From an uncultured Chloroflexia bacterium (GTDB lineage: Bacteria > Chloroflexota > Limnocylindria > Limnocylindrales > CSP1-4): 64,000 bases of DNA. Location: contig CAVVJT010000004.1 in NCBI GenBank assembly GCA_963748625.1, forward strand, positions 320,001-384,000, read 5' to 3'. Of the stretch, positions 594-52,401 are shown one piece after another. The notes beneath the pieces were generated by a model. It did no database searches. It worked only from the letters and a program-made list of their open reading frames with translations, and had not been told where the DNA came from. A program made the position numbers and the translations under genes. Each line of letters begins with the position of its first letter. Position 1 is the first letter of the stretch.

Positions 594-1331
594 TTACGGA
601 GCCGATGTGGCCTCCGCCTCCGGCGACGCTGCAGCCGAGGCTGCGGGCGCCGGGGTCGCGAGGATGTTGTGGCACAGCGTGCAGGTCTCCTCCTCGCGCA
701 ACGCGTGGTCGATCGGGAGGGCGCCCGCCTGGCTCGACTGGTGGCACGAGCGGCAGGTCAGGTTCTGCGGATCGGGGTGCGGCTTGGCGGGCGGCGGAGC
801 GGGGTTGGGCTTGTGGCACAGCCAGCACTCGTCCTGGTTGCGCCCGACCATGCTGGACGGCAGGTGCGCGACCGTGCCATGGCAGTCGAGGCATGGCTCG
901 TGCAGGTCGGCGTGCGCCTGCGTGATCGCCGGCCCGTCGGGCGCCACTTTGTGGCAGTTGAGGCACTCGGTCTCGGCAATACCGGTATGGCCCGGCGCCT
1001 TGCGGCCCAGGTCCTGGTCGTCGTGGCAGGTGAGGCAGGCGGTCCAACCCTCGATCTGGTGGCCGATGGCCGGGATCGGCTTGAGGTCGGCGGCACCGCC
1101 CTTCTCGTGGCACAGGAGACAGCTGTTCGAGGTAGGGATGTGGGCCAGGCCCATCTGCATCGTCTCGGGCGTCGCAGAGGCCAACGGGGCGACCGACTCT
1201 GCCGCCGTACCGCGCGCGGGGATCACGTGCAGCCAGTCGAGCACCATGGTCAGCGCGAGGAGCCCCACCACGACCAGGTTGAGCGCGATGAGCAGCCGTA
1301 GCGTGCGGTCGAACCTCGATCGTCGTTTCAT
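594..1331 (-). CDS. Membrane-anchored multiheme cytochrome c (7 CxxCH)
   Basis: N-terminal TM helix; CLLCH, CLTCH, CLNCH, CLDCH, CWLCH, CRSCH, CTLCH; ATGA overlap with the upstream protease gene. Confidence 0.9.
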   Translation of the reverse strand: MKRRSRFDRTLRLLIALNLVVVGLLALTMVLDWLHVIPARGTAAESVAPLASATPETMQMGLAHIPTSNSCLLCHEKGGAADLKPIPAIGHQIEGWTACLTCHDDQDLGRKAPGHTGIAETECLNCHKVAPDGPAITQAHADLHEPCLDCHGTVAHLPSSMVGRNQDECWLCHKPNPAPPPAKPHPDPQNLTCRSCHQSSQAGALPIDHALREEETCTLCHNILATPAPAASAAASPEAEATSAP

Positions 1332-1876
1332 GCGTGCGCCCCTGTCGTCTGGGTGGGTGAGCCCGCCGCGATGCGGTGGGCTGCGATCTGCTCATCCATC
1401 ACACGGAGCTCGTCACGCACCGTCCCGATCGTCCGAGGCAGAGCGGCCGCGACAACGGGCGAGAGCCCCGTCCCGAATCCGGTGTTGACCACCTCGACCC
1501 CGACCAGCGCCACAGGCTCCGGGAGCCAGCCCATCAGGCGGGCCATGGCCAGCAGCTCGGCGACGGAGTTGGGCGCCTGCCCGGGTGCCCCGTCCGCCTG
1601 GACGATGGCATCGCCGTGCAGGACCGACACGGAACCCTCTGGCCCGCCCAGATGGAGCGCGTCCACCAGCACGAGGCCCCTGGCGTCGCGGACTGCGTGC
1701 AGCAGGTCCATCAGCAGCGTGCCGCCGTCCACGAGCCACGTGTGCTCGGGCAGCGCGACCGGGTCATGCTCCTGGATCTCGCGCAACGCCTCGATCACGC
1801 GCACGCCGATCGCGTCGTCGCGAAGCAGCACATTGCCCACGCCGATCACGACGAGCGGGCGGGTGGGCTCGCTCAC
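1328..1876 (-). CDS. Hydrogenase maturation endopeptidase (HyaD/HybD family), divergent
   Basis: GVGNVLLRDDAIG, DGGT and LVDA motifs; the usual SxH His appears replaced (QAPNSV). Confidence 0.85.
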   Translation of the reverse strand: MSEPTRPLVVIGVGNVLLRDDAIGVRVIEALREIQEHDPVALPEHTWLVDGGTLLMDLLHAVRDARGLVLVDALHLGGPEGSVSVLHGDAIVQADGAPGQAPNSVAELLAMARLMGWLPEPVALVGVEVVNTGFGTGLSPVVAAALPRTIGTVRDELRVMDEQIAAHRIAAGSPTQTTGAHA

Positions 1877-2679
1877 GGCTCGGTCCGCTCCAGCAGCTCG
1901 GGGCCGCCGTCACGCGAGGCCACGACCTGGTGGCGGGTGGGGAACTTGTAGCCGTTGATCATCGAGGACACCAGGCCGTTCTGCTCGATGTGGTCGACCA
2001 GCACGCAGCTGTAGACGTGGAACAGCGCGATCGCGAGGATCACCCACATCGCGAGGTGATGGATCACGCGCAGCATCTGGGCTCCGAGCAGGTCACGCAG
2101 CCAGCCGAACATCGTCGCCCCGGGCTCGGCACCCATGAGGCCGTCGAGCGCGAAGCCCGTGACCGTCTCCGCGAGCAGCAGCACGAACAGCACGACGTAT
2201 GCCGTGGCGGCCAGCTGGTTGTGGCCGAGGACCTCGGGAATCTCCTTGCGGAAGAACCCGTAGAACCCGGCCTGGCGGTACAGCTCGGTCGCCTGGTAGC
2301 GGCTGGTCGGGATGAACGCCGTCCAGCGGGCGAACCGGTTGCCGAAGATCAGCATCCACGTCCGGACGAGACCCGACACGAGGAAGGTGAGCGCCGCGAT
2401 GATGTGGAGCAGCCGCACGTTGCTCATGAGGGCCCCGCCGGCCGGGATGAGGAAGGGATCCGCGATGTACATGCCCGAGATCGCGAGGATCACGATGCAC
2501 GCGGCGGTCACCCAGTGCGTGACCCGCACGGGCACCTGCCAGATGTAGAGCCGGACGCGGCGGCCCGGATCCTCGATGTGGTGCGCGGCGTCGGCGTGGG
2601 CACCAGCCGTCGGGACGGTGGCCGGGACGGCGGCCTCGGCGGACGCCGCGCCGGGAAGGGTCTCCTGGGCGACGGTCAT
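1873..2679 (-). CDS. hyaC: Ni/Fe-hydrogenase b-type cytochrome subunit (HyaC-like)
   Basis: YIWQVPVRVTHW, RLLHII, GHNQLAA, RVIHHLAMW and FHVY heme-b motifs; start MTVAQ overlaps the large-subunit stop (ATGA). Confidence 0.88.
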   Translation of the reverse strand: MTVAQETLPGAASAEAAVPATVPTAGAHADAAHHIEDPGRRVRLYIWQVPVRVTHWVTAACIVILAISGMYIADPFLIPAGGALMSNVRLLHIIAALTFLVSGLVRTWMLIFGNRFARWTAFIPTSRYQATELYRQAGFYGFFRKEIPEVLGHNQLAATAYVVLFVLLLAETVTGFALDGLMGAEPGATMFGWLRDLLGAQMLRVIHHLAMWVILAIALFHVYSCVLVDHIEQNGLVSSMINGYKFPTRHQVVASRDGGPELLERTEP

Positions 2680-4454
2680 CGGACGGCCTCCGGGGCGGTT
2701 GCGCGGACGCTGACGACGGTGTCGCCGCCCGCTCGTGGATCGTGGACATGCGCCGCGCATGCGGCGCATGGGGCGATGGAGTGGACGACCCGCAGGATCT
2801 CCAGCGGCTGCGCGGCATCGGCGACCGGCGTGCCAACGAGCGAGGACTCGAGGGGGCCGGCCATCGCGAGCACGTCGCGAGGCGAGGCGTTCCAGGTGGA
2901 GCCGTCGACGACCTGGTAGGCGTCGACGTACTTGTTCTTGACGTGGACCCAGTGGTTGACGGAGCCGCGCGGGCCCTCTCCGGCCGACCAGCCGGCGAAC
3001 TCGTCGGGCCACGCGTTGGGATCCCACAGCTCCACGCTGGCGACCGAGACATCGCCCGTCGCAAGGCTGGAGCGAAGCTCCCAGACCCAGCCGTCGAGCT
3101 CGCGGCTCAGGACGTCGGTCTCGACCGCACGGGCCAGCATCCTGCCGAGCACGCCGGTGGTGCCCTTGGGGCCGAGGCCGGTGCGCTCGAGCAGCCGGGC
3201 CAGCGCCAGGCGGATCTCCGTCTGGCCGTTGGCGGCCCCCACCAGCACCCGGGCGAGGGGGCCGGTCTCCATCGGCAGCCCGTTGTACCGCGGCGCCTTG
3301 GACCAGGTGTACTTCCCATCCCCGTCAAGCTGCGTGAGCGGGAGCGTGGCGGTGAACATTGGGTCGGTGAGGCCGTCGACCGGGCGGGTCAGCGCATCGT
3401 CACCGTTGGGGTACGTGTACCAGGCGTGCTGGACCGACTCGCCGATGTCCTCGTGGCTCACCGGCTGGGAGCCCTCGAGGTTGCCTTCCATGAGGCGGCC
3501 GGCCGGGAAGAACATGACGGGTTTGGCGCTCTGGTCCTGCGGGAACTCCCCGTTGCACAGGTAGTTGCCCGGCCCGGCCCCAATCGTGGCGTACTCGGGA
3601 TAGGCGTTGGCGAGCATGACCGTGTCAGGGACGAACACCTGATCGACGAACATGCGAGCGCCCTGGATGAGGCCCGCCAGGAGGTCGAGGCCCTCCTGAC
3701 TCAGCGGCGGGGGTGCGTTGCGATCCGGGACCTGCGGGTGCTGGCGGGTCTGCGATGCGGCCGGACCACCCCACGGCGGGGCGACGGCCATGCCGCCCAC
3801 CAGGAATGTCTGGGGGTGCGGGTCCTTGCCGCCCAGGAGGGCTTCGAGCCGCAGGAAGTCCGCCTGCCAGTCCAGCGCCTCGAGCATGTGCGCGGCGAGG
3901 AGCAGGCTCTGCTCCGGGGTGAGCCGGTAGGCCGGATGGCCGGCCCAGCCGCCGCCGAACGGGTTCCGCTGCTCGCTTCCGAGGACGCCGGCAAGGCGGT
4001 CCTTGACCTCCTTGAACCACGCCGATGTCGAGTTCGCCCACGCGCTCTGACCCGTGGCCAGGCGCGCGGTCGCCACCGGATCCGCGGTCACGGCGAGGGA
4101 GATGTCCATCCAGTCCGAGAGGGACCGCTGGTACAGGACCATGACGTGATCGCGGACCATCATGGACGCCGCCATGATGCTGCGGATGAGGCGCGCATTG
4201 ACCGGGATCACGATGCCCAGCCCCTGCTCGACCGCACGTACGGACGCGAGCGCGTGGACGCCGGTGCAGGTCCCGCAGATGCGCTGGGCCAGCAGCCATG
4301 CGTCGCGCGGATCACGGCCCACGAGGACGGTCTCGATGCCGCGGAACGTGCCGGCCGACACCCAGGCCGACCCGACGTAACCGCCGACGGTCTCGGCATC
4401 GACGCGCATCTGGCCGTTGGCCCGGGTGACGGGATCGACGACGATGCGGGTCAT
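2676..4454 (-). CDS. [NiFe]-hydrogenase-like large subunit, group-1 derived, with non-canonical active-site motifs
   Basis: GRDPRDAW, L1 QRICGTCTGVH, GGKDPHPQ, KYTWSKAPRY, GPRG, STWNASPRD, L2 SIAPCAACAAH plus a cleavable C-terminal tail; RANGQ replaces RIEGH. Confidence 0.9.
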   Translation of the reverse strand: MTRIVVDPVTRANGQMRVDAETVGGYVGSAWVSAGTFRGIETVLVGRDPRDAWLLAQRICGTCTGVHALASVRAVEQGLGIVIPVNARLIRSIMAASMMVRDHVMVLYQRSLSDWMDISLAVTADPVATARLATGQSAWANSTSAWFKEVKDRLAGVLGSEQRNPFGGGWAGHPAYRLTPEQSLLLAAHMLEALDWQADFLRLEALLGGKDPHPQTFLVGGMAVAPPWGGPAASQTRQHPQVPDRNAPPPLSQEGLDLLAGLIQGARMFVDQVFVPDTVMLANAYPEYATIGAGPGNYLCNGEFPQDQSAKPVMFFPAGRLMEGNLEGSQPVSHEDIGESVQHAWYTYPNGDDALTRPVDGLTDPMFTATLPLTQLDGDGKYTWSKAPRYNGLPMETGPLARVLVGAANGQTEIRLALARLLERTGLGPKGTTGVLGRMLARAVETDVLSRELDGWVWELRSSLATGDVSVASVELWDPNAWPDEFAGWSAGEGPRGSVNHWVHVKNKYVDAYQVVDGSTWNASPRDVLAMAGPLESSLVGTPVADAAQPLEILRVVHSIAPCAACAAHVHDPRAGGDTVVSVRATAPEAVR

Positions 4455-5734
4455 GCTTCGGGCTCCGCGGTCGTGGGCTGGGATTCGGGGGGCGTGGTGA
4501 CCGCAGCGTGGTCATCCGGAGGGGTGACGACCGCGACTTCGGCGGCTTCCGCGGCGGCCGGTGGCTGCGGGTCAGCCTCGGTGGCAAGCGCCTGCGGGTC
4601 AGCCTCGCCGGCCGCGGAGCCTCCCGCGCTGGCGGCTTCGGCGGCAGCTGCGGCCTCCGCCCTCGCGATCCGCTTCCGGCGCTTGAAGCGCATCCCCATC
4701 CCGGTCGCGTGAACGGCGACGACGCCGGCGATGCCGCCGACCATGGCCACACCGATCGTGTCCACCGTCAGGTTCGGCAGCGGCGGGACGGGCGCGGGGA
4801 GCCGGGCGTACGCCGGTCCCATCGCATCCCACGACGACGGGGTCATGCAGCCGATGCACCCCTCCCCTGCCCGGACGTTCCAGCTGACCCCGCCGCCGTA
4901 GCGGACGGTCGGGCAGTTGGCCATCGTCTCGGGTCCCTTGCAGCCGACCTTGTACAGGCACCAGCCCCGCTGGGCACCCTCGTCACCCCAGGACAGCGCG
5001 AACTCGCCGAACTCGAAGTGGGGGCGCCGCTCGCACTGGTTGTGGACCAGGTTGCCGTAGGCCGAGAGTGGGCGGCTCATGAGGTCCGTGGGCGGCCACT
5101 CGCGGAAGGTCAGCCAGTGGATGAGCACCGAGACGAGCGTGACCACGTTGAGCGGGCATCCCGGCAGCGCGATGTACTGGGCGTTCCCGATGTAGCCCCT
5201 GATGCCCTCGGCGTCGGTGAGGTTGTTCCTGGCCGCCGAGATGCCGCCGTCACAGGCGCAGGATCCTGCCGCGATCACCGCGATCGCCCCGTCGGCGACC
5301 TCGCGCAGGACATCGGCTGCCGGCCGCCCTTGGATCAGGCAGTAGCCGTCGCCGCCGCGAGGGAGGCTTCCCTCCACGACCAGGACGTAGCCGCCCGGGT
5401 AGCGCTCCATCGCATCGGTGAGCGCCTGGCCTGCCCCGGCGCCCGAGACCGCGAGGAACGAGTCGTGGTACTCGATGGAGACCGTCTCGAGGAAGAGCTG
5501 CGACACGGAGGGGTCGATCGAGCGCAGGGTCGCCTCGGTGTTGCCACCGCAGGTCTGCGTGCGGAGCCAGATGACCGGCAGGCGGGGGGCGGCTTCGACG
5601 GCTGCAGCGATGCGCGGGGCGTAGGTGGTCGGCAGCGCGAGGGCAGCGGCCATGGCGGTCGAGAATTGGAGGAACGACCTCCGGGACATCCCGCGCCGCA
5701 CCAGCGCGCCGTACAGCCCTCCGTCGTCCATCAC
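4451..5734 (-). CDS. [NiFe]-hydrogenase-like small subunit with Tat signal and C-terminal TM anchor
   Basis: SRRSFLQ twin-arginine motif; TCGGN, GSCACDGG, PGCP, HNQCERR, WCLYKVGCKGP, GCIGC; C-terminal TM then an acidic Ala/Pro tail. Confidence 0.9.
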   Translation of the reverse strand: MMDDGGLYGALVRRGMSRRSFLQFSTAMAAALALPTTYAPRIAAAVEAAPRLPVIWLRTQTCGGNTEATLRSIDPSVSQLFLETVSIEYHDSFLAVSGAGAGQALTDAMERYPGGYVLVVEGSLPRGGDGYCLIQGRPAADVLREVADGAIAVIAAGSCACDGGISAARNNLTDAEGIRGYIGNAQYIALPGCPLNVVTLVSVLIHWLTFREWPPTDLMSRPLSAYGNLVHNQCERRPHFEFGEFALSWGDEGAQRGWCLYKVGCKGPETMANCPTVRYGGGVSWNVRAGEGCIGCMTPSSWDAMGPAYARLPAPVPPLPNLTVDTIGVAMVGGIAGVVAVHATGMGMRFKRRKRIARAEAAAAAEAASAGGSAAGEADPQALATEADPQPPAAAEAAEVAVVTPPDDHAAVTTPPESQPTTAEPEA

Positions 5735-6430: not shown

Positions 6431-8494
6431 TCAGGCGGCCCGGCCTTCGTCGCCCTCCGGGGGCACATCGTCGTCCCCGAGCTGGTGATCGTCGCGCCGG
6501 TAGGGCACGTCCACCACCACGGTGTGCTGCCGGCCGAGCAGGATCGTCCGCAGGCGGCGCGCCGACTGGTTGTAGAGGATCCGCTCCCACCAGTGGCGTG
6601 CGACGTACTCGGGCACCACGACGAACGTGATCGGCTCGGGCTTGTCGGGCGGCCACGCGCGGTCGAGCACGTCGAGGTAGGCCATGAGCGGCCCCGCGAG
6701 CGCCCGGTACGGACTCTCCACGATCACGAGCGGCACACCCGGGACCTGGCGCTCCCAGCGCTCGCGCATCCGCGCGGAATGCTCGGGATCCTCGCTGATG
6801 TAGACCGCGCTCACGTCCTCGGTGATCGAGCGGGCCACGTTGACCGCCCGGACGACCGCCCGGTTGAGCGACGGCACCGGGATGATGGCGCGCTCCTGGC
6901 GGGTGAGTGGCGGCATCACGAAGTCGTGCGGGATGGCGAGCTGGCGACTGGACGCCGTGTACTGGCGATTGATGAACAGCATCCCGCCGACCAGCATCGG
7001 GATCAGCACCGCGACCACCCATGCCCCGTGCTCGAACTTCTCGGTCAGGACGATCAGCAGGACCACGCCGGTCAGGAGCGCGCCAAACGCGTTGACGATC
7101 ATCCGCCACCGCCAGCCCGGGGCGCGGGTGCGGACCCAGTGACGGACCATGCCGCCCTGGCTCAGCGTGAAGCACACGAACACCCCGACCGAGTACAGCG
7201 GAATCAGGCTGGTCGTGTTGCCCTGGAAGACCACATACAGGCCGGCGGCCACGGCGGCCAGCAGGACGATGCCCCAGCTGTACGCGAGCCGGTCGCCGCG
7301 GAAGGTGAACTGGCGCGGGAAGTAGCCGTCCTCGGCCAGGATCGCCGCAAGCCGGGGGAAGGCATTGAAGCTGGTGTTCGCGGCCAGGAACAGGATCAGG
7401 GCTGTCGCGAGCTGGAACACGTAGAACAACGGGCTGTCCCAGCCGAACACCGTGCTCGCCACCAGCGCGATGACCGTCGGCCCGCCCGACAGCGCCACCG
7501 ACGGGACGATGTCATAGGCGCGCGAGATGATCGTGACCCCGATGAAGATGACGCCCAGCAGGACGGCCATCGCCAGCATCGTGTTCGCGGCGTTCTTCGC
7601 CTCCGGCGGCTTGAAGGCGGGCACGCCGTTGGCGATCGCCTCCACGCCGGTCAGCGCGACCGAACCGCTGGCAAACGCGCGCAGGATCAGCACCAGGCCC
7701 AGCGTCTCCGTGCCCAGCGGGACCGCCTGTTCCTGGGGCGACATCGGGACGGCCTGACCGGTGGCAACCCGGTAGAGGCCGATGACCACGATGACCAGCG
7801 CCAGGCTCACGAAGAGGTAGGTGGGAATGGCGAACGCGTTGCCCGCCTCGCGCAGGCCGCGCAGGTTGCCCACCGTGATGAGGGCGATCACCGCCACGGC
7901 AACCTCGATCCGGACGAAGTCCAGCCCCGGCATGATCGAGATCAGCTGGTCCATGGCGGACGACGTGGACACGGCCACGGTCATCACGTAGTCGATCAGC
8001 AGTGCCGCAGCCGCCACCAGGCCGAGGATCGGCAGCAGCTCCTGGCGGGCGACCGCGTAGGCGCCACCGCCCTGCGGAAAGGCGTTGCACACCTGGCGGT
8101 AGGAGACCGCCACCACGGCCAGCAGGACCGCGATCGCAATGGCGATCGGCACGGACACCATGAGTGCGCCCGCACCTGCAAGGACGAGGACCCGCAGGAT
8201 CTCCTCCGTGGCGTAGGCCGAGGACGAGATCGCATCGGACGAGAAGATCGGCAGGGCGAGCCGCTTCGACAGGCGCTCGCCGATCTCCTCCTCGGAGGCC
8301 ATCGGACGTCCGATGAACCAGGCCTTGGCCCGCTGCACGCCACGCCCGAACCCGGAGCGTGGCGTCGACGCCGCGGCCTTCGCGACCAGCTGGTTGGGAC
8401 CCGTGTACCTGAAGTAGGCGGAGTGCGGACGTTCGACACGGACCCGCTTGTCACCCGGCTTGCGGCCGCTGATGGGCTTGCGGCCGCCGATCAT
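6431..8494 (-). CDS. kimA: KimA/YdaO-type APC-superfamily K+ transporter
   Basis: ALPIFSSDAISSSAYATEE, GGGAY, DYVMTVAVS, ALTGVEAIANGVPAFKPPE and LIPLYSVGVF, plus C-terminal cytosolic domain ESPYR...WWERILYNQ. Confidence 0.85.
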   Translation of the reverse strand: MIGGRKPISGRKPGDKRVRVERPHSAYFRYTGPNQLVAKAAASTPRSGFGRGVQRAKAWFIGRPMASEEEIGERLSKRLALPIFSSDAISSSAYATEEILRVLVLAGAGALMVSVPIAIAIAVLLAVVAVSYRQVCNAFPQGGGAYAVARQELLPILGLVAAAALLIDYVMTVAVSTSSAMDQLISIMPGLDFVRIEVAVAVIALITVGNLRGLREAGNAFAIPTYLFVSLALVIVVIGLYRVATGQAVPMSPQEQAVPLGTETLGLVLILRAFASGSVALTGVEAIANGVPAFKPPEAKNAANTMLAMAVLLGVIFIGVTIISRAYDIVPSVALSGGPTVIALVASTVFGWDSPLFYVFQLATALILFLAANTSFNAFPRLAAILAEDGYFPRQFTFRGDRLAYSWGIVLLAAVAAGLYVVFQGNTTSLIPLYSVGVFVCFTLSQGGMVRHWVRTRAPGWRWRMIVNAFGALLTGVVLLIVLTEKFEHGAWVVAVLIPMLVGGMLFINRQYTASSRQLAIPHDFVMPPLTRQERAIIPVPSLNRAVVRAVNVARSITEDVSAVYISEDPEHSARMRERWERQVPGVPLVIVESPYRALAGPLMAYLDVLDRAWPPDKPEPITFVVVPEYVARHWWERILYNQSARRLRTILLGRQHTVVVDVPYRRDDHQLGDDDVPPEGDEGRAA

Positions 8495-8543
8495 CGCCCG
8501 TCCTCCCGGCCCTGCTGCCGGTGGGGACGGACTGTTGGCCGGT

Positions 8544-8798
8544 TCATGCGGTGATGGCCTCCACGAGGACGTCGAACCGGTCGGGACGCGAGGTCGCGAT
8601 CGTGCGCAGGCGGGTACCGGACTCGAGGGCGAAGCGCATGCACAAGTCTCGGACCACCTCGCCGTGGGCGAGGCCGGCGACGAGCACGCGCCGCGAGGCC
8701 CCCGAATTGACGAGCAGGATGGCCTCGCGCACGAGGCGCTCCTCACCGGCCCAGGGGCTGGGGAAGACGGCGTCGTCCAGGGCGATGGCGGGTTCCAT
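8544..8798 (-). CDS. Small hypothetical protein (84 aa) upstream of kimA
   Basis: GGAGG SD before ATG (MEPAIALDD...); plausible alpha/beta composition. Confidence 0.55.
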   Translation of the reverse strand: MEPAIALDDAVFPSPWAGEERLVREAILLVNSGASRRVLVAGLAHGEVVRDLCMRFALESGTRLRTIATSRPDRFDVLVEAITA

Positions 8799-8854
8799 GC
8801 CTCCACCATCGCAGGCACGCCCAAGAGGGAACGACACCGCGAACGCCCCCGGCG

Positions 8855-8872
8855 CCTAAGGTTTCCCTAAGG
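8855..8872 (-). promoter_or_regulatory. Candidate OmpR/KdpE-type direct-repeat binding site
   Basis: CCTTAGG-GAAA-CCTTAGG on the minus strand with 11-bp period, overlapping the kdpE stop and upstream of the small ORF and kimA. Confidence 0.45.
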
Positions 8873-9598
8873 ATTGGCGCCCAGGTCGCGGATCCGGTAG
8901 CCCACTCCCGGTTCGGTGCGGATCAGGTCGTCGAGCGTGCCATCAGGGTCGGAGGCCGCGAGCTTGCGGCGCAGCTGGCTCACGTGCACGTAGACGTAGC
9001 TGTCCTCGCCCTGGTACGCCTCGCCCCAGACGGCCCGGAGCAGGCGGCCCTTGGTGACGACACGGCCGCGATGGGTGAGCAGGATGCGCAGGAGCTCGAA
9101 CTCGCGCGGGGTCAGGTCCACGCGCCGTCCGTCGACCGTCACCTCGTGCGTGGCGGCGTCCAGGACGAGCGGGCCCGTCGCGATCCGGCCGGCGGCGTCC
9201 CCGCCGGGCCCGACGGCCCGGCGCAGCGCCACCCGGAGGCGGGCCCGGAGCTCGTCCACCCCAAAGGGTTTGGTCACGTAGTCGTCCGCTCCCCGGTCGA
9301 GCGCCTCGACCTTCTCGCGCTCCTCGTACCGGCCCGACAGGATCACGATCGGGGTGGCCGCCTCCCGGCGCATCGTGCCGACGAGCGTGAGCCCGTCCAT
9401 GTCCGGCAACCCGAGGTCGAGCAGGACGAGATCCGGCCGACGCGCTGCCCAGCGCTCCAGGGCCGTCCGGCCGTCGGGCGCCTCCACAACGGTGTAGCCG
9501 CCCGAGGCGAGCTCCCGGACGAGCGCCGCGCGCGTCTCGGCATCGTCCTCCACGACCAGGATCGTGGGCCCGGTGCCGGGTGCGGGGCTGCGCATCAT
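8867..9598 (-). CDS. kdpE: KdpE-like OmpR-family response regulator
   Basis: VVEDD, LLDLGLPDMDG, KVEALDRGADDYVTKPFG, LTPREF, VSQLRRKL, IRTEPGVGY. Confidence 0.9.
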   Translation of the reverse strand: MMRSPAPGTGPTILVVEDDAETRAALVRELASGGYTVVEAPDGRTALERWAARRPDLVLLDLGLPDMDGLTLVGTMRREAATPIVILSGRYEEREKVEALDRGADDYVTKPFGVDELRARLRVALRRAVGPGGDAAGRIATGPLVLDAATHEVTVDGRRVDLTPREFELLRILLTHRGRVVTKGRLLRAVWGEAYQGEDSYVYVHVSQLRRKLAASDPDGTLDDLIRTEPGVGYRIRDLGANP

Positions 9599-11199
9599 GC
9601 GGGCGTCCGGGCGTACAGGCCTGCCTCGCCGTCGGCGGCCTGTGCGACCTCACCGTCGGCAGGCGCCTCGCCGGGGAGTGCGCCCGCGGGCAGGTCGATG
9701 TCCACGGCCAGCCCGCCCAGCGCGCCCCGCCGCGCGGCCACCGCGCCCCCCATCGCCTCGATCAGGCCGCGCGTCACCGCGAGCCCGATGCCGGTCCCCT
9801 CCCTCGATCGCCTGCCCGAGCCCGGGACGCGGTAGAACTTCTCGAACAGCCGGTCCAGGTGCTCGGGGGCGACGCCGGAGCCGTCGTCCTCCACGGTGAG
9901 GCGCACGCGCTCCGGATCGAGGTCCCGCGCCGTGACCAGGATGCGGGCGCCGTCGGGCGTGTGCTTCAGGGCATTGTCGAGGACGTTCGTCACCGCCTCA
10001 TCCACGAACACCGCGTCCACCACGACCGGGGCGGAACGCAGGTCGGCCTGGAGGGTGCGCGCGCCGAGGCGCTGGCGGGTGCTGTCGAGCGCGCGCGCGA
10101 GGAGGTCGTCGAGGTCGAACAGCTCGCGGTTCGCCCGTAGCGCGCCCGCCTCGATCCGGGAGAGGTCGAGCAGGTTGGTGACCATCCGGTTGAGGTACTC
10201 GACCTCACGCTCGATCGCGTCAGCGCTGGCGCGGCGGTCCTCGTCCGACAGGCTCGTGCCCGGGCGCAGGCTGCCGGCCGCCGCGCGGATGGTGGCGAGC
10301 GGCGTGCGCAGGTCGTGCGACACGGACTGGAGGAGCGCGCTCTTGAGGGCGTCGCTCTCCCGCGCGATCTCGGACGCGCGGACCCGGTCCTCGACCATGT
10401 CGTGCGCGAGCGCCTGGCCCACCTGGTCCGCGACCGCGGCCATCAGCCGCGTGCCCACTGCGTCCGGCTCGCCGAGCACGCGGGGGCGCTCGGCCCACAG
10501 CGAGCCGAGGGGCTCGCCGCTCGCCTCGATGCGGACGCGGTAGGTGTCCACGGGACCGGCAGTACGGCGGCCCGCCTCAGGGCGCTGGACGATCGACCAG
10601 CGCGCCGGCTCATCACCGGGCGTCCGCTGGAGGACCCGGTGGCGGGCGGGCAGCGCGGGCGGACGGGCAGCGCCGGTGTCCGCGAGCACCGTCTCCGCCG
10701 CCGGATCCGGACCAGTGGCGATCCAGGCGCGCTCGAGCCCAACCTGCGCCCGGAGCGACCCCAGGATGGCGCTCGTGGCCTCCGCCATCGACGTGCGGGT
10801 GGCGAGGGCGCGGCTGGTGCCGAACAGCGCCCGGGCCTCCAGGGCGGCGGCGTCCGCAGCATCGGCACGACGTCGCTGGAGGGCGGCGAGCTCACCCACC
10901 GTCACGCCCACGAACAGCAGCAGCACCACGCTGAGCAGCACCCCCGAGTCATGGATCGCGAAGGTGAACCGGGGCTCGGTGAACCAGAAGTTGTACAGGG
11001 CGGCTGAGCCGACCGCCGTCACGACCGCACCGCCGGTGCCGACGAGCAGGGCGGCGAGGACGACGGCGACGAGGTAGGCGGACGAGGCGTTGGCCACGCC
11101 GACGGCATGCTCCAGGGCCGCGACGGCCAGCGTGGCGGCGGCCAGCAGTGCCAGGACGATGAGGACGGCGCGTATCGCGCGCCAGAGAGGACCGTGCAT
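9595..11199 (-). CDS. kdpD: KdpD-like sensor histidine kinase lacking the N-terminal KdpD/Usp domains
   Basis: Four TMs with YNFWFTEPRFTFAI (DUF4118), GAF-like region, SVSHDLRTPL, LLDLSRIEAG and GTGIGL; TAGGAT -10 hexamer 7 nt before the ATG at 11199. Confidence 0.85.
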   Translation of the reverse strand: MHGPLWRAIRAVLIVLALLAAATLAVAALEHAVGVANASSAYLVAVVLAALLVGTGGAVVTAVGSAALYNFWFTEPRFTFAIHDSGVLLSVVLLLFVGVTVGELAALQRRRADAADAAALEARALFGTSRALATRTSMAEATSAILGSLRAQVGLERAWIATGPDPAAETVLADTGAARPPALPARHRVLQRTPGDEPARWSIVQRPEAGRRTAGPVDTYRVRIEASGEPLGSLWAERPRVLGEPDAVGTRLMAAVADQVGQALAHDMVEDRVRASEIARESDALKSALLQSVSHDLRTPLATIRAAAGSLRPGTSLSDEDRRASADAIEREVEYLNRMVTNLLDLSRIEAGALRANRELFDLDDLLARALDSTRQRLGARTLQADLRSAPVVVDAVFVDEAVTNVLDNALKHTPDGARILVTARDLDPERVRLTVEDDGSGVAPEHLDRLFEKFYRVPGSGRRSREGTGIGLAVTRGLIEAMGGAVAARRGALGGLAVDIDLPAGALPGEAPADGEVAQAADGEAGLYARTPA

Positions 11200-11713
11200 G
11201 GCGCCGATCCTACCCCTCAGGTCGGACGCATTCCCGACCGCGGGGTGCCTCAGTCGCCATGTGCGCGCCGCCCCGCTGTCTCCGGCACACGGGGGGACGC
11301 CCGTCCCCGGGGACGCCGACGGAGTGTGCGGGCCCGAGCTACCCGGCGCGCGTTGCCCCGGGGACGAGGGCGCCCGACCTCCCCCTGGGAACGTCTGGCG
11401 CGTCACCATCGTGCGCGTCGTCACTTATGCGCCGCTTATCTCGCTCCACCGGTCTGGCACCGTGCATCGCTGGCGGATCACCGTGGTACGCCGGGGGTGC
11501 CACGACGCGCACGCCCCACCCCGGGGGCGTTTCGGAGTCCCTTCCGCACGCGGTGCGCTCGTAACCCGGGGTTTCGCCCCCGGCTCGTGCTCAGACGGCC
11601 GCGAAGCGGCCCCCACGTGGGGCGAGACGCGACACATGCACCCGGTGAGCGGCGCCTGCCACCCTCCTGCCGGCTGTGCCTACGCGGGGCCAGCCGATGA
11701 CGAGGAGGCGGCG

Positions 11714-47255: not shown

Positions 47256-47588
47256 TCAGACGACCTCCACGAGCTCCAGCTCGGGGGTCGGCGGGAACGA
47301 GCGCAGCTCCGAGCAGGACGGGCAGACCGCCTGGCCGGGGCCGATCACGTCATCGTGGCCCAGCGCACCACTGAACCCGCACGGGCAGGCCAGGCGGACC
47401 GGGAACTCGTTCGCCTCCAGCTCGGCTCCGTCGAGCGGCCCACCAGCGGTGAGCATCGCCCAGGCCTGCTCGAAGACATCGGCAGGGATGGTGGAGGCGT
47501 AGCGGATCACCACGCGCTTCGCTCGCGGTCCCTCCAACCGCGCGACCGCGGCATCCACCAGGTCCGCGACCAGGGCCACCTCATGCAC
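47256..47588 (-). CDS. hypA: HypA-like nickel metallochaperone
   Basis: N-terminal MHE; CPCG...CPSC zinc site; last gene of the hox operon. Confidence 0.75.
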   Translation of the reverse strand: MHEVALVADLVDAAVARLEGPRAKRVVIRYASTIPADVFEQAWAMLTAGGPLDGAELEANEFPVRLACPCGFSGALGHDDVIGPGQAVCPSCSELRSFPPTPELELVEVV

Positions 47589-48057
47589 GGCGCTGCTCCT
47601 CCACCAGGTCGATCACCACGCGGGTGGCATCGGCCACCCCAGCCTCCACCTCGGGAGTCAACTGCTCCCCTACCTCGAGCGAGCGTACGCCGATGCTGAT
47701 CACCACGGTGGGCGGAGCCGCACCGAACAGGCCGAGCGCCAGCCCGAGCAGGCTCTGCGGCTCCAGGTGGTGGGTCATGGACGGATCGGCGTCACCCGAC
47801 GCCTCCACGTGCCGGACGCTGACCTCGCCGGGCGGGGGGCCCTCGGCCGCATCCACGAGGATGAGCAGCGACGCGGACGCGGCATCCACCGCCAGCTCGG
47901 GGGTGAGCTGGTGGGCCGTGCGCACGTCCACGCCGGCCATGCGGGGGTCGGCGGCGACCCGTTCGGCCACCGCAGGTCCTGCGCCGTCGTCGGTCCGGAG
48001 CGGGTTGCCGTACCCCACGACGAGGACGGCGCCCACGGCCGGACCGACATCCGTCAC
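47581..48057 (-). CDS. hoxW: Hydrogenase maturation protease (HoxW-like)
   Basis: GYGNPLRTDDGAG, HQLTPE, LVDA, MTHH. Confidence 0.85.
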   Translation of the reverse strand: MTDVGPAVGAVLVVGYGNPLRTDDGAGPAVAERVAADPRMAGVDVRTAHQLTPELAVDAASASLLILVDAAEGPPPGEVSVRHVEASGDADPSMTHHLEPQSLLGLALGLFGAAPPTVVISIGVRSLEVGEQLTPEVEAGVADATRVVIDLVEEQRRA

Positions 48058-49475
48058 CGGGTGATCTCGGACATCACAGCTCCGTCGGGCGCCAGCAGCT
48101 GCACGCGGAGCGCCATCTTCCCCAGGGCGTGGGTGGAGCAGGAGAGGCACGGGTCGTAGCAGCGGATGACCGCCTCGACCCGGTTGAGCATCGACTCCTC
48201 GAGCTTGTCGGCCTTCACATACTTGCGCGCGACCTGGAGGACTGCGCGGTTCATCGCCGCGTTGTTGTGCCCCGTGGCGATCACGAGGTTCGCCCACTCG
48301 ACCAGGCCGTCATCGTCCACCTTGTAGTGGTGCATCAGCGTCCCGCGGGGAGCCTCGGACACGCCGATGCCCTCGTTGCGGTTGATGCCGGCCGTGGCCA
48401 GGGTGTGCTTGTCGAGGATGTCAGGGCCGCGCAGCAGCTCCTCGATCTTCTCGACGGCGTGGAGGGTGTCGATCAGGCGGGCGTAGTGATAGTGGAAGCT
48501 GGAGCCCGCGATCCGGCCGACGCGCCAGCGGAACTTCTCCAGCTCCTCGTCGGCGCGCGGGGTTCCGCACTTCTCCGCCACGTTGAGGCGCGCGAGCGGC
48601 CCCACCCGATAGATGCCATCGGGGTAGCCCATGGGCTTCCAGTAGGTCGTCTTGAGATACGACCAGGGCTCCACGGCCTCGCCGATGTAGTCGTTGAACG
48701 ACTTCGGATCGATCTTGTCGGCGAGGAAGTGGCCGTCGGCATCCACGACCCGGATCCAGCCGCCGTAGTGGTCCACGTTGCCGTCGCGGTCAACGAGGCC
48801 CATGAATGCGGAGCGGAAGTTGCCGAGGGAGGCGGCCTCCTCCTCCCAGCGGAGCATGTCGTGCTTGTACCAGGCGATGGCCCGCTCGGTGGCGGCGATC
48901 GCGTCGGGGACCCCGGCGAGGATCCGGTCGCGGACCTCGGCCGTGAGCTGGAAGGCCACGCCTCCGGGCACGATGCCGGTCGGGTGGATCCGCTTGCCGC
49001 CCAGCCACTCGATGATCTGCTGGCCCCACTTGCGCAGGGCGATGCCGTCCTTGGCGAGTGCCGGATTGGCGTTCGCCACGCCGATGATGTTGCGGATGGC
49101 GGGGTCGGCGTCGAACCCGAACAACAGGTCGGGTGACGAGAGGTGGAAGAACGAAAGGGCGTTCGACTGGACGATCTGGCCCAGGTTGATGACGCGGCGC
49201 AGGTCGGCGCCCGTGGGCGTCGGCTCGACGGCCATGATGTCGTCCACGGCCTTCGCCGAGGCGACGAGGTGGCTGACCGGGCAGATGCCGCAGATGCGGG
49301 CCATCAGGGCCGGCATCTCGTGGACCGGGCGGCCCTGGGTGATCCGCTCGAAGCCGCGGAACTGCGTCACGTGGAAGTGCGCGTCCACGACCTCGCCGCG
49401 ATCGTCCACCTGGATGGTGATCTTGGAATGGCCTTCGATCCGGGTGACGGGATCGATCGTGATGGTCTGGCTCAT
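48054..49475 (-). CDS. hoxH: Group 3d bidirectional [NiFe]-hydrogenase large subunit
   Basis: DPVTRIEGHSKI, RICGICPVSH, FFHLSSPD, EAPRGTL, IATGHN, YDPCLSCSTH. Confidence 0.95.
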   Translation of the reverse strand: MSQTITIDPVTRIEGHSKITIQVDDRGEVVDAHFHVTQFRGFERITQGRPVHEMPALMARICGICPVSHLVASAKAVDDIMAVEPTPTGADLRRVINLGQIVQSNALSFFHLSSPDLLFGFDADPAIRNIIGVANANPALAKDGIALRKWGQQIIEWLGGKRIHPTGIVPGGVAFQLTAEVRDRILAGVPDAIAATERAIAWYKHDMLRWEEEAASLGNFRSAFMGLVDRDGNVDHYGGWIRVVDADGHFLADKIDPKSFNDYIGEAVEPWSYLKTTYWKPMGYPDGIYRVGPLARLNVAEKCGTPRADEELEKFRWRVGRIAGSSFHYHYARLIDTLHAVEKIEELLRGPDILDKHTLATAGINRNEGIGVSEAPRGTLMHHYKVDDDGLVEWANLVIATGHNNAAMNRAVLQVARKYVKADKLEESMLNRVEAVIRCYDPCLSCSTHALGKMALRVQLLAPDGAVMSEITR

Positions 49476-49488
49476 CGTGCGGGCTCCC

Positions 49489-50018
49489 TCAGCGCCCGAA
49501 CCGGGCGCCGGCGACCTCGGGGGTCCTCCCGGACAGCAGGTCGTCGAGCAGGGTGTAGATCAGGTCCGCGGATGGCGGGCATCCGGGCAGGAACACGTCC
49601 ACGTCCACGAACCGGTTGACCGGCTGCGAGGTGGGCAGCAGCTGCGGGACCACCACATCGGGGATCATCGGGTTGATATCGACGTTCTCGAGATAGGCGC
49701 GCCGCAGGAGCGGCGGCACCCCGATCGGATTGCGCATGCCTGGGACATTGGATGTGACGGCGCAGTCGCCGAAGGCGATCAGCACCTTGGTCCGGGCCCG
49801 GACGGTCATGATCCGCTCGAGGTCGTCCTCGGACGAGACAGAGCCTTCGACGAGGCAGACGTCCACGCCCTCGGGGAACTCCTTGACGTCCACGAGCGGG
49901 CCGTACACGAGGTCGGCTCGCGCGAAGATGTCCAGCAGTCGCTCGTCGAGGTCGACGAGCACATGTGACAGCCCGAGCAGCCGTCGAGCCAGACCGTGGC
50001 GACACGCGGCTTGCTCAC
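49489..50018 (-). CDS. hoxY: Bidirectional hydrogenase small subunit with a 1-nt deletion near 49960
   Basis: MSKPRVATVWLDGCSGCHM continues as LVDLDERL...FGDCAVT...PGCPP in another frame. Confidence 0.85.
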
Positions 50019-50728
50019 AGTCCTCGCTCCTCCTGGTGCACCCGGAGCCAGGGCAGGAACGGGCGCTTATCCTTGGTGCCGGCCGCGACCGGCCGGCCTT
50101 TCTCGAACAGGGCCCCGACGGGGCAGACCTGGACGCACTTTCCGCAGCTGGTGCAGGTGGTGGACTCGCCCCACGGGATGCCCATGTCCGCCTGGACCCG
50201 GGTCTCGAGTCCGCGGTGCATGACATCCCAGACGTGGGCGCCCTCGATCTCGTCGCACACCCGCACGCAGCGCAGGCACAGGATGCAGCGGTTGTGGTCG
50301 AGGCCGAACAGCTTGTGCGAGAGGTCCACGTCGACCTTCGGGCTGATCCGCGGCAGGTCGAAGTGGGTCACCCGCAGGTCGTCGGCGAGCTCCTGGAGCT
50401 CGCAGTGGTTGTTGGCGACGCAGACGGCGCAGACGTGGTTGCGCTCGAGGAAGATCATCTCCGTCGCCACTCGGCGGTACTCGGTGAGGTCGTCGTCGTG
50501 CGCGGTGACCTGCATCCCCTCGCTGATCTGGGTGACGCAGGCTGCAGCGAGCTTGGGCGAGCCCGCGACCTTCACGACACACAGGCGGCATGCGCCCCGG
50601 TCGTGGATGCCGGGCATGTGGCACAGGCCCGGGATGTCGATCCCGTTCTCCTCGGCCACCTCCATGATGCTCTGGCCCTCGTTGCCGGCGACGTCCCGGC
50701 CATCGATGGTCAGCGTGTAGACGGTCAT
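50015..50728 (-). CDS. hoxU: Bidirectional hydrogenase diaphorase Fe-S subunit
   Basis: IPGLC, GACRLC, ERNHVCAVC, CILCLRCVRVC, CTSCGKCVQVCP. Confidence 0.93.
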   Translation of the reverse strand: MTVYTLTIDGRDVAGNEGQSIMEVAEENGIDIPGLCHMPGIHDRGACRLCVVKVAGSPKLAAACVTQISEGMQVTAHDDDLTEYRRVATEMIFLERNHVCAVCVANNHCELQELADDLRVTHFDLPRISPKVDVDLSHKLFGLDHNRCILCLRCVRVCDEIEGAHVWDVMHRGLETRVQADMGIPWGESTTCTSCGKCVQVCPVGALFEKGRPVAAGTKDKRPFLPWLRVHQEERGL

Positions 50729-52401
50729 GCCGGCACCTCCGACGGCTGCTCGAGCTCACAGACGCCGGCCGGGCACCGCTTGTCCACGATGTGGGCGAGG
50801 TACTCGTCCCGGAAGTAGCGCAGCGTGCTGAAGATGGGGTTCGGGGCGCCCTGGCCCAGGCCGCACAGGCTCATCCGCTGGACGACGCCGGCGAGGCGCT
50901 CGAGGTTGGCCAGGTCGATCATGTCGGCCTGCCCCTTGCAGATCTTGTCAAGCAGCATCCAGAGCTGGGTGGTGCCCACCCGGCACGGGACGCACTTGCC
51001 GCACGACTCGTCGCGGCAGAAGTCCTGGAAGTAGCGGGCGACGTCCACCATGCACGACGTGTCGTCCATGATGATCATGCCGCCCGAGCCCATGAACGAC
51101 CCGAGCTGGATCAGTGACTCGTAGCTGACCTCGGTGTCCAGGTGCTCGGCCGGGATGCAGCCGCCCGACGGGCCACCGGTCTGGACAGCCTTGAAGGGCC
51201 GGCCGTCGATGATCCCGCCACCGATGTCGTAGATGATCTCCCGCAGGCTCATGCCCATCGGGACCTCGACAAGGCCGGTGTTCACGATGCGGCCTGCGAG
51301 CGCGAACACCTTGGTGCCCTTGCTCTTGCCGATGCCGATCGCCGCATACCAGTCGGCGCCCTTGCGCAGGATCGTCGGCACGTTGGCGTAGGTCTCGACG
51401 TTGTTGATCAGCGTGGGACAGCCGAACAGGCCTTCGACCGCCGGGTACGGCGGTCGCGGACGCGGGTTGCCGCGCTTGCCCTCGACCGAGGCGATCAGTG
51501 CGGTCTCCTCGCCGCAGACGAACGCGCCCGCACCGAGACGGATCTGGATGTCGAAGTTGAACGACGTGTCAGCGATCCCGGCGCCCAGGAAGCCTGCCCG
51601 CTGGGCCTGGCGGATCGCGTTGCGCAGCCGGGCCACCGCCAGCGGGTACTCCGCACGGCAGTAGATGTAGCCCTCCGTCGCATGGACGGCGAATGCGGCG
51701 ATCGCCATGCCCTCGAGGACGCGGAACGGATCGCTCTCAAGGACCGAGCGGTCCATGAACGCACCCGGGTCGCCCTCGTCGGCGTTGCAGATGACGTACT
51801 TCTGGGTGCCCGCCGCCTTGGCGACGGTCGTCCACTTGAGGCCGGTCGGGTAGCCTGCACCGCCGCGCCCGCGCAGGCCGCTGGTGGTGATCTGCTCGCG
51901 GACCTCGGTGGAGGTCATCTCGGAGAGGACCTTCGTGAGGGCCTCGTACCCGCCGCGGGCGAGATAGTCGTCCAGGCTCTCGGGATCGACGCGGCCCATG
52001 TTCTCGGTGGCCACGCGCAGCTGCTTCTCGAAGAAGGGACCCTGCGGTTTGGGCGTGTCGCCGGGCTTGACACCCTTGAGCGCCTTGACGAGCTTGCCAA
52101 GATCGTCAGGTTTCACCTGCGCGAACTGCTCGCCGGTCTCCGCGATCTCCACGAGCGGACCCGCGGCACACAGGCCGAGGCAGCCGACGCGCTTGACGTT
52201 GACGTCCGCCAGGCCCTGGGCCGCGCAGGCCTCGGCCAGCTTCACGGTGATGTCGTGGGCCTGGGCGCTCATGCACGAGGCGGCCTCGCACACGAGGGCC
52301 GACGCACGCACGGGCGGCGCCTCGGTGCCCTGCGCCAGCTCGCTGAGCACATGGGGAAGGGCGCGCCGGCGGACGGGCCGCGGCGCGGACTGCTCGCTCA
52401 C
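50725..52401 (-). CDS. hoxF: Bidirectional hydrogenase diaphorase flavoprotein subunit
   Basis: SGLRGRGGAGYPTG, CNADEGDPGAFMDR, GAGAFVCGEETAL, ESCGKCVPCR; N-terminal Trx-like 2Fe-2S domain. Confidence 0.93.
   Translation of the reverse strand: MSEQSAPRPVRRRALPHVLSELAQGTEAPPVRASALVCEAASCMSAQAHDITVKLAEACAAQGLADVNVKRVGCLGLCAAGPLVEIAETGEQFAQVKPDDLGKLVKALKGVKPGDTPKPQGPFFEKQLRVATENMGRVDPESLDDYLARGGYEALTKVLSEMTSTEVREQITTSGLRGRGGAGYPTGLKWTTVAKAAGTQKYVICNADEGDPGAFMDRSVLESDPFRVLEGMAIAAFAVHATEGYIYCRAEYPLAVARLRNAIRQAQRAGFLGAGIADTSFNFDIQIRLGAGAFVCGEETALIASVEGKRGNPRPRPPYPAVEGLFGCPTLINNVETYANVPTILRKGADWYAAIGIGKSKGTKVFALAGRIVNTGLVEVPMGMSLREIIYDIGGGIIDGRPFKAVQTGGPSGGCIPAEHLDTEVSYESLIQLGSFMGSGGMIIMDDTSCMVDVARYFQDFCRDESCGKCVPCRVGTTQLWMLLDKICKGQADMIDLANLERLAGVVQRMSLCGLGQGAPNPIFSTLRYFRDEYLAHIVDKRCPAGVCELEQPSEVPA

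Follow-up and report, generated by a model that had tools for sequence, protein, structure and literature searches.

What does a [NiFe]-hydrogenase-like complex do once its proton gate is gone? The Glu of the RxEGH motif is regarded as the indispensable proton gate of these enzymes, the [NiFe]-hydrogenases, and to our knowledge its role has so far been probed only through engineered variants. The question is raised by a five-gene operon on the minus strand at positions 594-5734 of a 64,000-nucleotide stretch of DNA from an uncultured Chloroflexia bacterium (GenBank assembly GCA_963748625.1, contig CAVVJT010000004.1, positions 320,001 to 384,000), referred to here as the window. An original prediction had described the locus as an intact but rewired hydrogenase-like complex, coupled to a multihaem cytochrome, that may not oxidize H2 in the usual way. 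We report that its large subunit belongs to a single clade of Glu-lacking Chloroflexota enzymes, in which the metal ligands are kept, a new Asp is invariant and a heptahaem cytochrome c gene has joined the operon. The reading that we favor, with a probability of about 0.55, is that the complex would be a working but kinetically altered H2 enzyme, that is, a membrane-bound respiratory [NiFe]-hydrogenase exported by twin-arginine translocation (Tat), whose protons would leave by a rebuilt exit and whose electrons would have cytochrome c as an additional outlet.

An intact operon with an altered large subunit

Five open reading frames (ORFs), taken from the ORF list and named by their Pfam and NCBIfam matches, stand in a row on the minus strand, and all four gene junctions are 4-nt overlaps (ATGA or GTGA), bearing out the predicted coupled operon. 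They encode a small subunit of 427 aa with the Tat signal SRRSFLQF (4451-5734; TIGR00391, 354 bits, and TAT_signal); a [NiFe] large subunit of 592 aa (2676-4454; PF00374, 533 bits, model positions 1-508 of 508); a dihaem Ni/Fe-hydrogenase cytochrome b membrane subunit of 268 aa (1873-2679; TIGR02125, 129 bits against a cut-off of 121.5); a HyaD/HybD-family maturation endopeptidase of 182 aa (1328-1876; TIGR00072, 104 bits); and a membrane-anchored heptahaem cytochrome c of 245 aa with seven CXXCH motifs (594-1331; Cytochrome_C7 and Cytochrom_c3_2 Pfam matches). The TAT_signal and cytochrome b matches agree with the export and membrane binding that had been predicted. The large subunit is missed by the NCBIfam equivalogs for Hyd-1 and Hyd-2, scoring 418.7 with NF007550 (cut-off 1101) and 416.7 with NF007778 (cut-off 969).

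The large subunit was aligned residue by residue to PDB entries 3MYR and 4C3O (HMMER, E ∼1e-134). DPVTRANGQ stands where the solved enzymes have DPxTRIEGH, RICGTC is in register with RICGVC, and HVMVLYQRSLSDW is in register with HVMHFYHLHALDW, so placed that VLYQRS replaces the His-rich segment HFYHLH. Further along, GEGPRG is in register with xEAPRG, VVDGSTWN takes the place of VVPSTWN, and SIAPCAACAAH is in register with SFDPCxACxxH, SIAPC replacing SFDPC. Numbered as in E. coli HyaB, the substitutions are E28N, H30Q, V78T, H122V, A507G, V530D, P531G and D574A, and the retained residues are C76, C79, C576, C579, H83, D118, H229, P508, R509 and H582; the metal-binding Cys are C60, C63, C563 and C566 in the numbering of the protein itself. 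The substitutions RANGQ, APC, VLYQRS and VDGSTWN noted in the original prediction are therefore real and in register, and the alignments also confirm the retained Ni/Fe Cys, the canopy Arg (GPRG) and a tail that is presumably cleaved.

The PDB alignments and a table of aligned positions place the altered codons, all on the minus strand, as follows. Asn13, at the proton-gate position (Hyd-1 E28), is encoded at 4416-4418; Thr62, between the two N-terminal metal Cys (Hyd-1 V78), at 4269-4271; the pair Asp517-Gly518, replacing the Val-Pro of VVPSTWN (Hyd-1 V530-P531), at 2904-2909; and Ala561, replacing the Asp of DPCxxC (Hyd-1 D574), at 2772-2774. Region length and conservation mark a clade-specific insertion of ∼17 residues after VGGM (PPWGGP...RQHPQVPD; 3705-3779), and a C-terminal extension of 23 residues after His569 (2679-2747), recognized by tail comparison and from the PDB alignments, is presumed to be the substrate of the protease. 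An AlphaFold2 model of the large subunit has a predicted local distance difference test score (pLDDT) of 88.8 and a predicted template modeling score of 0.90, with low pLDDT at residues 228-243, in the insertion.

The altered residues define a single clade

A search of 5.8 billion proteins returned at least 120 homologues of the large subunit at 52-100% identity, and the Glu is absent from every listed homologue with a readable N-terminal motif. Since the same substitutions recur in more than 120 homologues, read error is excluded; the original prediction had drawn the same conclusion from multi-nucleotide codon changes, an argument that proves immaterial. An alignment of 183 rows was assembled from homologues of at least 560 aa, 64 genome-locus sequences, the genome's own canonical paralog, and E. 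coli HyaB and HybC. It splits into 128 rows without the Glu (E-less), 49 E-bearing rows and 6 without a readable motif, a few proteins having been entered twice (as a P row and an L row).

The two sets differ at the same positions throughout. Position 28 is Gly in 108, Asn in 17 and Ser in 3 of the E-less rows and Glu in all 49 E-bearing rows, and position 78 is Thr in 116 (Ser in 6, Ala in 3, Val in 2, Met in 1) against Val in all 49. His122, present in every E-bearing row, is found in no E-less row. Position 530 is Asp in all 128 E-less rows (Val in 48 and Ala in 1 of the E-bearing rows), followed at 531 by Gly (72) or Ala (56) where the E-bearing rows have Pro (47) or Ala (2). Position 507 is Gly in 120 and Ser in 8, as against Ala in 47 and Gly in 2, and position 574, Asp in all 49 E-bearing rows, is Ala in 80, Asn in 22, Ser in 12, Asp in 10, Gly in 2 and Pro in 1. 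The E-less rows nonetheless keep the four metal Cys in 127-128 of 128 cases, R509 and D118 in 126 each and the terminal His in 127. The region after VGGM has a median length of 66 residues in E-less rows and 49 in canonical rows, the insertion being present in all of the former and none of the latter; within it W228, G229, G230, P231, H239 and P240 are invariant in A1.

In a tree computed with IQ-TREE (LG+C20 with posterior mean site frequencies, quick search, 52 rows, rooted on E. coli HyaB/HybC), all 25 E-less rows lie on one side of a branch with a Shimodaira-Hasegawa-like approximate likelihood ratio of 100, and a single state change suffices; a FastTree analysis of 105 rows recovers the same single E-less clade. 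Its sisters are RIEGH-bearing Chloroflexota enzymes whose titles name Limnocylindrales and Anaerolineaceae (L016, L018-L023, L034), and enzymes of Roseiflexus, Oscillochloris, Acidobacteriaceae, Eremiobacterota and Sysuimicrobiota stand further out. The E-less clade is thus nested within, and appears derived from, RIEGH-bearing (1f-like) enzymes of Chloroflexota. One node unites the loss of Glu, the change of V78 to Thr, the replacement of V530-P531 by Asp-Gly/Ala, the 17-residue loop and the addition of the heptahaem cytochrome gene to the operon. The early-branching members P0103, L015, L017, L024, L028 and L036 have lost the Glu and have the Asp-Gly/Ala pair and the insertion, yet they retain DPC and part of the His-rich segment, which places the Glu loss and the Asp gain first and together, and the loss of Asp574 later. 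The V78 substitution, the invariant Asp coupled to the loss of Glu, the insertion and, as described below, an Asn in the small subunit and a canonical paralog had all been omitted from the original prediction.

When 1.84 billion proteins were clustered at 50%, the full-length clade members fell to two representatives, P0095 and P0241, and four shorter, partial E-less cluster rows (P0243, P0257, P0264, P0270) share the clade motifs. A sample of 301 genomes of the class contains 31 with a large-subunit match at E ≤1e-50, variant and canonical types together, and 20 that encode an ortholog of the heptahaem cytochrome (at least 55% identity). In 18 of these 20 the cytochrome lies within 3.3 kb of a variant large subunit (at least 48% identity) on the same contig; the other two are at contig ends. 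Of 12 genomes in the window's own genus, 10 have a match to the large subunit and 9 to the cytochrome. The clade lives in Chloroflexota of soil, groundwater and sediment. A search of sequencing runs listed no RNA run with a match, and the DNA runs with one carried only small shares.

One damaged copy, and a second that may be damaged, were seen. In one genome of the same genus (L009; G272:C62:34879-36534), the variant large subunit is truncated at about residue 551 and is followed only by a 53-residue remnant of the heptahaem cytochrome, with neither cytochrome b nor protease; this resembles a deletion and is the only decayed copy seen. A variant large subunit at G038:C1:2108511-2110226, ∼750 bp from a cytochrome c gene, is reported with two in-frame TGA codons and may be a damaged gene or an assembly error.

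Ten other hydrogenase-like large subunits were found at 27-36% identity to that of the window (P0272, P0273, P0302, P0304, P0330, P0333, P0347, P0350, P0388 and P0389). Most of these lineages are without the proton-gate Glu, although P0388 retains it; metal Cys are additionally lost in P0273, P0330 and P0388, and the canopy Arg in P0272, P0330, P0333 and P0347. Metagenomes thus appear to hold a wider population of degenerate or repurposed [NiFe] large subunits.

A heptahaem cytochrome c accompanies the variant operons

We compared 80 genome loci, 19 of the variant type and 61 canonical. A homologue of the heptahaem cytochrome (54-82% identity) follows all 16 variant operons whose contig extends past cytochrome b; the remaining variant loci are L009, with its remnant, and L004 and L013, where the contig ends too early. 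No heptahaem homologue was found at any of the 61 canonical loci. The cytochrome family numbers 481 members at E ≤1e-5, and among the best 120 of these 481, 119 have exactly seven CXXCH motifs; seven distal His are also conserved, which suggests bis-His haems. An AlphaFold2 model has a mean pLDDT of only 50.7, with confidence confined to the N-terminal helix (residues 4-36), and an alignment profile compared with the PDB gave no significant solved relative (best E 0.018). A protein atlas search with the cytochrome yielded only generic c7/c3-type clusters of Chloroflexota. A predicted complex of cytochrome b, the heptahaem cytochrome and four haems scored 0.24 against a mark of 0.32 and is counted neither way.

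Beyond the operon, the genome has genes for MtrC-domain cytochromes, a protein with 30 CXXCH motifs, a NapC/NirT-type protein and ResB-type cytochrome c maturation. The organism thus has a c-type cytochrome network at its disposal, to which the variant operon may be connected. MtrC-type and multihaem repertoires are usually tied to extracellular electron transfer. The 30-CXXCH protein, of 757 residues with c7/c3 and MtrC-domain matches, is encoded on contig C7 at 164792-167062 (L107:4793-7063), and the same contig carries 7-haem (795 aa) and 6-haem (457 aa) MtrC-domain cytochromes beside ResB and the NapC/NirT-type gene (L108). The heptahaem cytochrome has a paralog at C7:58561-59592 (33% identity over 177 residues), which adjoins an NrfD-family gene (L109:4379-6073) and is ∼10 kb from a group-4-like [NiFe] large subunit (C7:69356-71005).

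Small subunit, cytochrome b and maturation

The small subunit has the iron-sulfur (FeS) cluster ligands, a C-terminal membrane helix and a low-complexity Ala/Glu/Pro tail. Asn (TCGGN, residue 65) stands in for the second Cys of the proximal-cluster motif CxGC, and the other ligands of the three clusters align with those of PDB entries 1H2A and 6G94. Asn or Asp at this position (CGGN, CAGN, CTGD) occurs in the E-less clade and in many canonical neighbors, including those of Roseiflexus, Acidobacteriaceae and Limnocylindrales (loci L016-L080), although CxGC is retained in others, so that a proximal cluster with three Cys appears to be characteristic of the wider group. In cytochrome b, whose start at 2679 is backed by a homologue (L001), His55, 92, 153, 207 and 221 are invariant in 17 variant and 47 canonical rows.

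Most clade members have a C-terminal large-subunit tail of 19-21 residues. In the early-branching L028 (4548-6239) and L036 (7001-8707), each in the numbering of its own locus, and in P0241, a protein without genomic context, the large subunit ends exactly at the terminal His. The L028 and L036 operons are also without a protease gene, cytochrome b being followed directly by cytochrome c. This joint loss of tail and protease implies that, where both are kept, they are in use. The window's genome has one hypC-hypD cluster and six [NiFe] large-subunit homologues, and the variant large subunit presumably receives the standard cofactor.

Constraint has shifted relative to a canonical paralog

The same genome carries a canonical paralogous operon on contig C7 (961000-969500; L106), with small subunit, large subunit, cytochrome b and protease genes but no cytochrome c gene. 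Its large subunit has RIEGH, CGVC, HFYHLHALDW, EAPRG, VVPSTWN and DPC, and its subunits are 43-47% identical to those encoded in the window. Six further genomes of the genus also carry this canonical paralog. We considered whether a TGA inside canonical paralogs might specify selenocysteine and rejected this, the codon being an ordinary stop at the gene end.

Seven genomes of the genus with both operons (21 genome pairs) were used for crude Nei-Gojobori (NG86) estimates of nonsynonymous (dN) and synonymous (dS) divergence and their ratio, omega. For the large subunit, identity is 0.58 in the variant and 0.83 in the canonical operon (dN ratio 2.7), with omega 0.46 vs 0.25, and for the protease it is 0.52 and 0.79 (dN ratio 2.9), with omega 0.62 vs 0.21. 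The difference is smaller for the small subunit (0.68 and 0.82; dN ratio 1.9; omega 0.35 vs 0.24) and for cytochrome b (0.77 and 0.82; dN ratio 1.3; omega 0.31 vs 0.26); the heptahaem cytochrome, present only in the variant and thus without a canonical counterpart, has omega 0.35 at 63-82% identity, and all of these omegas are probably too high, since dS is probably underestimated at this GC content of third codon positions. Purifying selection therefore acts on the variant operon, which is not decaying; its large subunit and protease are less constrained than those of the paralog, while the cytochromes stay tight. The original prediction had named in advance the pattern of a decaying paralog, namely substitutions private to this genome with dN/dS near 1; what we find instead are 128 aligned rows in one clade and a large-subunit value of 0.46.

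A proposed rebuilt proton exit and its alternatives

The complex is built like a group-1 uptake hydrogenase, with three FeS-cluster sites (the proximal one with Asn for its second Cys), the Ni/Fe Cys, the canopy Arg, Asp118, a dihaem cytochrome b and a protease with a matching tail. According to passages of two studies (PMC10430524; PMC5902676), the Glu carboxylate normally lies <4 Å from the terminal Ni-Cys and takes the proton, and E. coli Hyd-1 with the Glu altered is not fully inactive. In the variant, we suggest, the Ni-Fe site would still split H2, Gly or Asn at position 13 would, being small, leave a cavity for water, and the proton could travel onward through this water and Thr62 and/or the invariant Asp517, as their conservation suggests. 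Two outlets would take electrons from the FeS chain: cytochrome b with the quinone pool, and the bis-His heptahaem cytochrome at the outer face of the membrane, the second of which would link H2 to c-type cytochrome acceptors. The altered gate would probably shift rate, bias or affinity rather than abolish catalysis. The appearance of Glu loss, V78T and V530D at one node supports coupling of these positions. Coupling of E28 and V78 is further supported by 77 diverse cluster representatives from outside the clade: all 17 that are E-less differ in the V78 column, and Val fills it in at least 90% of the 60 that are E-bearing, although this association may partly reflect phylogeny. The retained Cys, Arg and Asp118, the tail with its protease in most members and the new invariant residues fit a working Ni-Fe site as well as a new function, which leaves the suggestion that the complex may not oxidize H2 in the usual way no more than a possibility.

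Several observations weigh against a working hydrogenase. The variant large subunit has evolved ∼2.7 times faster (in dN) than its paralog in the same genome, and the protease is relaxed more strongly still, as would fit a catalytic function under weaker constraint. In all 120 variant pairs cytochrome b is better conserved than the large subunit, the reverse of nearly all 820 canonical pairs, albeit that the pairs are non-independent and the canonical set spans many phyla, so that the same-genome comparison is the stronger control. The canopy Asp574 is lost too, in 118 of 128 rows. We take the Val-Pro-Ser of VVPSTWN to line the pocket of the iron's CO/CN ligands, on whose residues literature searches turned up nothing of use; if it does, Asp517 would stand beside the cofactor and could alter its electronic properties. 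The roles of Asp517 and Thr62 are proposed from sequence, all clade members come from metagenome bins, and one genome holds the truncated copy described above.

The same shift of constraint could mark an electron conduit, in which the large subunit is kept mainly for small-subunit assembly and Tat export and electrons move from the quinone pool through the FeS clusters to the heptahaem cytochrome with little or no H2 turnover. Conservation would then have moved to the cytochromes, as the identities of the variant (large subunit 0.58, cytochrome b 0.77, cytochrome c 63-82%) suggest beside canonical values of 0.83 and 0.82, and as do the 120 of 120 pairs in which cytochrome b is the better conserved; among the genes that for the protease is under the loosest constraint, the large subunit has lost the proton-gate Glu, the His-rich segment and Asp574, and the genome has further multihaem cytochromes, including that with 30 CXXCH motifs. 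Against this, the metal Cys, Arg509, Asp118 and His83 persist in 126-128 of 128 rows over deep divergence, and assembly alone would not obviously require an invariant Asp517 and a Thr62 beside the metal ligands. The path to complex I shows that the Cys can go, and other E-less representatives have lost Cys or Arg, whereas this clade has kept them. A conduit is possible, but we think it rather unlikely. Less probable again is a neofunctionalized Ni-Fe enzyme acting on a substrate other than H2, perhaps a polar small molecule admitted by a remodeled channel, with the heptahaem cytochrome as its dedicated partner. Second-sphere gate residues did change together and were then fixed (Val78 at the channel end, the Leu126 position, the proton gate, the Val-Pro pair beside the conserved Ser/Thr, Ala507 and, later, Asp574), and a conserved insertion and a new subunit arrived at the same node, but nothing points positively to another substrate, the metal ligands, canopy Arg and signature of standard Hyp-dependent maturation are unchanged, and the conserved flanks consist of housekeeping genes with no accessory genes for other chemistry. 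Taken broadly, the proposition that the clade is no longer a conventional hydrogenase, and performs either another reaction or quinone-to-cytochrome c transfer, with Asp517 beside the pocket of the iron's diatomic ligands altering cofactor or chemistry, is one that we entertain only tentatively; if true, the clade would be a living intermediate on the kind of path that leads from hydrogenase to the redox arm of complex I.

The original prediction had also raised the idea of a sensor. Loss of proton-transfer residues would suit the low turnover of an H2 sensor of the regulatory-hydrogenase kind, and a few early-branching members are without the C-terminal tail, as regulatory hydrogenases are, but the Tat signal, the membrane cytochrome b and the cytochrome c all speak against it, and neither the operon nor its conserved flanks include a histidine kinase or PAS partner; we consider a sensor very improbable. 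A paralog on its way to becoming a pseudogene would evolve faster than its canonical counterpart, as this one does, and would leave truncated copies such as that in L009/G272. That account is refuted by full-length ORFs in more than 120 homologues down to ∼50% identity, omega below 1 for all five genes, new residues that are invariant, and conserved gene order and 4-nt coupling, and we give it almost no credence.

The clade amounts to a natural, long-lived experiment, in which the Glu has gone throughout and the neighborhood of the metal ligands has gained an Asp that never varies, a Thr that hardly does and an inserted loop; its members could show whether hydrogenases can use a different proton exit, and with what consequences for rate, bias and the response to O2. 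Through its heptahaem cytochrome, the operon may give Chloroflexota of soil, groundwater and sediment a route from H2 to c-type cytochromes, a capacity that automated pipelines would class as an ordinary 'group 1' uptake hydrogenase. The same-genome paralog also makes for a clean comparison, in which constraint has passed from a catalytic subunit to its partners in electron transfer.

Other genes of the window

The operon is flanked by a phosphoribosyltransferase gene (98-580) and an amino-acid-permease-family gene (6431-8824), both unrelated to it. Two-component genes lie at 8867-11424, with the permease gene between them and the operon, and this neighborhood is not conserved. The conserved flanks of variant operons encode a phosphoribosyltransferase, YceI, a glycosyltransferase, a ferric-reductase-like protein, an aldehyde dehydrogenase, a thiolase and a 3-hydroxyacyl-CoA dehydrogenase; these are housekeeping genes and reflect shared ancestry, not function.

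A bidirectional Hox-type cluster with canonical catalytic motifs occupies 47256-53159 on the minus strand of the window. It comprises genes for HypA (47256-47612), HoxH (48054-49559), a HoxU-like 2Fe-2S/4Fe-4S protein (50015-50755), a HoxF-like Nuo51 protein (50725-52638) and a HoxE-like protein (52398-53159). HoxH keeps RIEGH, EAPRG and DPC, just as had been predicted.

Comparison with known systems

Regulatory hydrogenases are cytoplasmic, with no Tat signal, no C-terminal tail and a kinase partner; the variant has a Tat signal and a tail and no kinase partner, and we reject this assignment. Groups 1l (Hyl) and 1m are recently defined group-1 lineages of soil bacteria that include Chloroflexota. 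As far as the available parts of their descriptions go, group 1l has five transmembrane ORFs between the large and small subunit genes and a Rieske partner and is modeled on 1h, and the actinobacterial group 1m, near 1h and 1l, has CooC-type, TPR, BirA-like and DUF1059 accessory genes. Group 1l was rejected because the variant subunit genes overlap by 4 nt and the 1h structure 5AA5 is matched only at E 2e-21; group 1m was rejected because none of its accessory genes is found in the operon or its flanks. A Chloroflexi-supergroup preprint, in the portions that we could draw on, gives only a 1f variant in Anaerolineae, which has an NrfD-like subunit, and 1l, the latter for this lineage. Searches on 1f, 1l, 1m, 1n and 1o, on the multihaem cytochrome and on Limnocylindria found no published description of the clade, the supplements of that preprint lying outside their scope. 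In line with the original prediction of an undescribed system, and with motifs and operon that fit neither 1l nor 1m, the clade appears to be a distinct, undescribed subgroup of the group-1 [NiFe]-hydrogenases.

Its nearest relatives are the canonical group-1 enzymes of Chloroflexota, Acidobacteriota, Eremiobacterota and Sysuimicrobiota, which have the same order of small subunit, large subunit, cytochrome b and protease, the Tat signal and, in many cases, CxGN/D. Their large subunits are 43-49% identical to the variant and keep RIEGH, CGVC, HFYHLH, EAPRG, VVPSTWN and DPC in 47-49 of 49 rows, with neither the insertion nor the heptahaem gene. Group-1 enzymes of these phyla are called group 1f in passages of two reports (PMC9758169; PMC11604079), and the 1f label is inferred for these exact genes from the phyla of neighboring enzymes. 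The best solved relatives are those of Allochromatium vinosum (3MYR, E 2e-134), Salmonella Hyd-5 (4C3O, 4e-134) and E. coli Hyd-1 (3UQY, 9e-122); aligned over their full length, all three have the metal Cys, canopy Arg and terminal His at matching positions, but they also have the proton-gate Glu, the Val-Pro pair and the DPC Asp that the variant is without.

Periplasmic [NiFe]-hydrogenases of sulfate reducers reduce multihaem cytochrome c3. The variant operon likewise pairs its periplasmic enzyme with a c3/c7-type multihaem partner, although here, unlike in sulfate reducers, that partner is a seven-haem protein anchored in the membrane, its gene belongs to the operon, and it coexists with cytochrome b. 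The engineered enzymes E. coli Hyd-1 E28Q and D. fructosovorans E25Q lack the same carboxylate next to the terminal Ni-Cys. In the clade, by contrast, the loss of Glu is natural and old, and fixed changes at V78 and V530/P531 go with it, as does the insertion.

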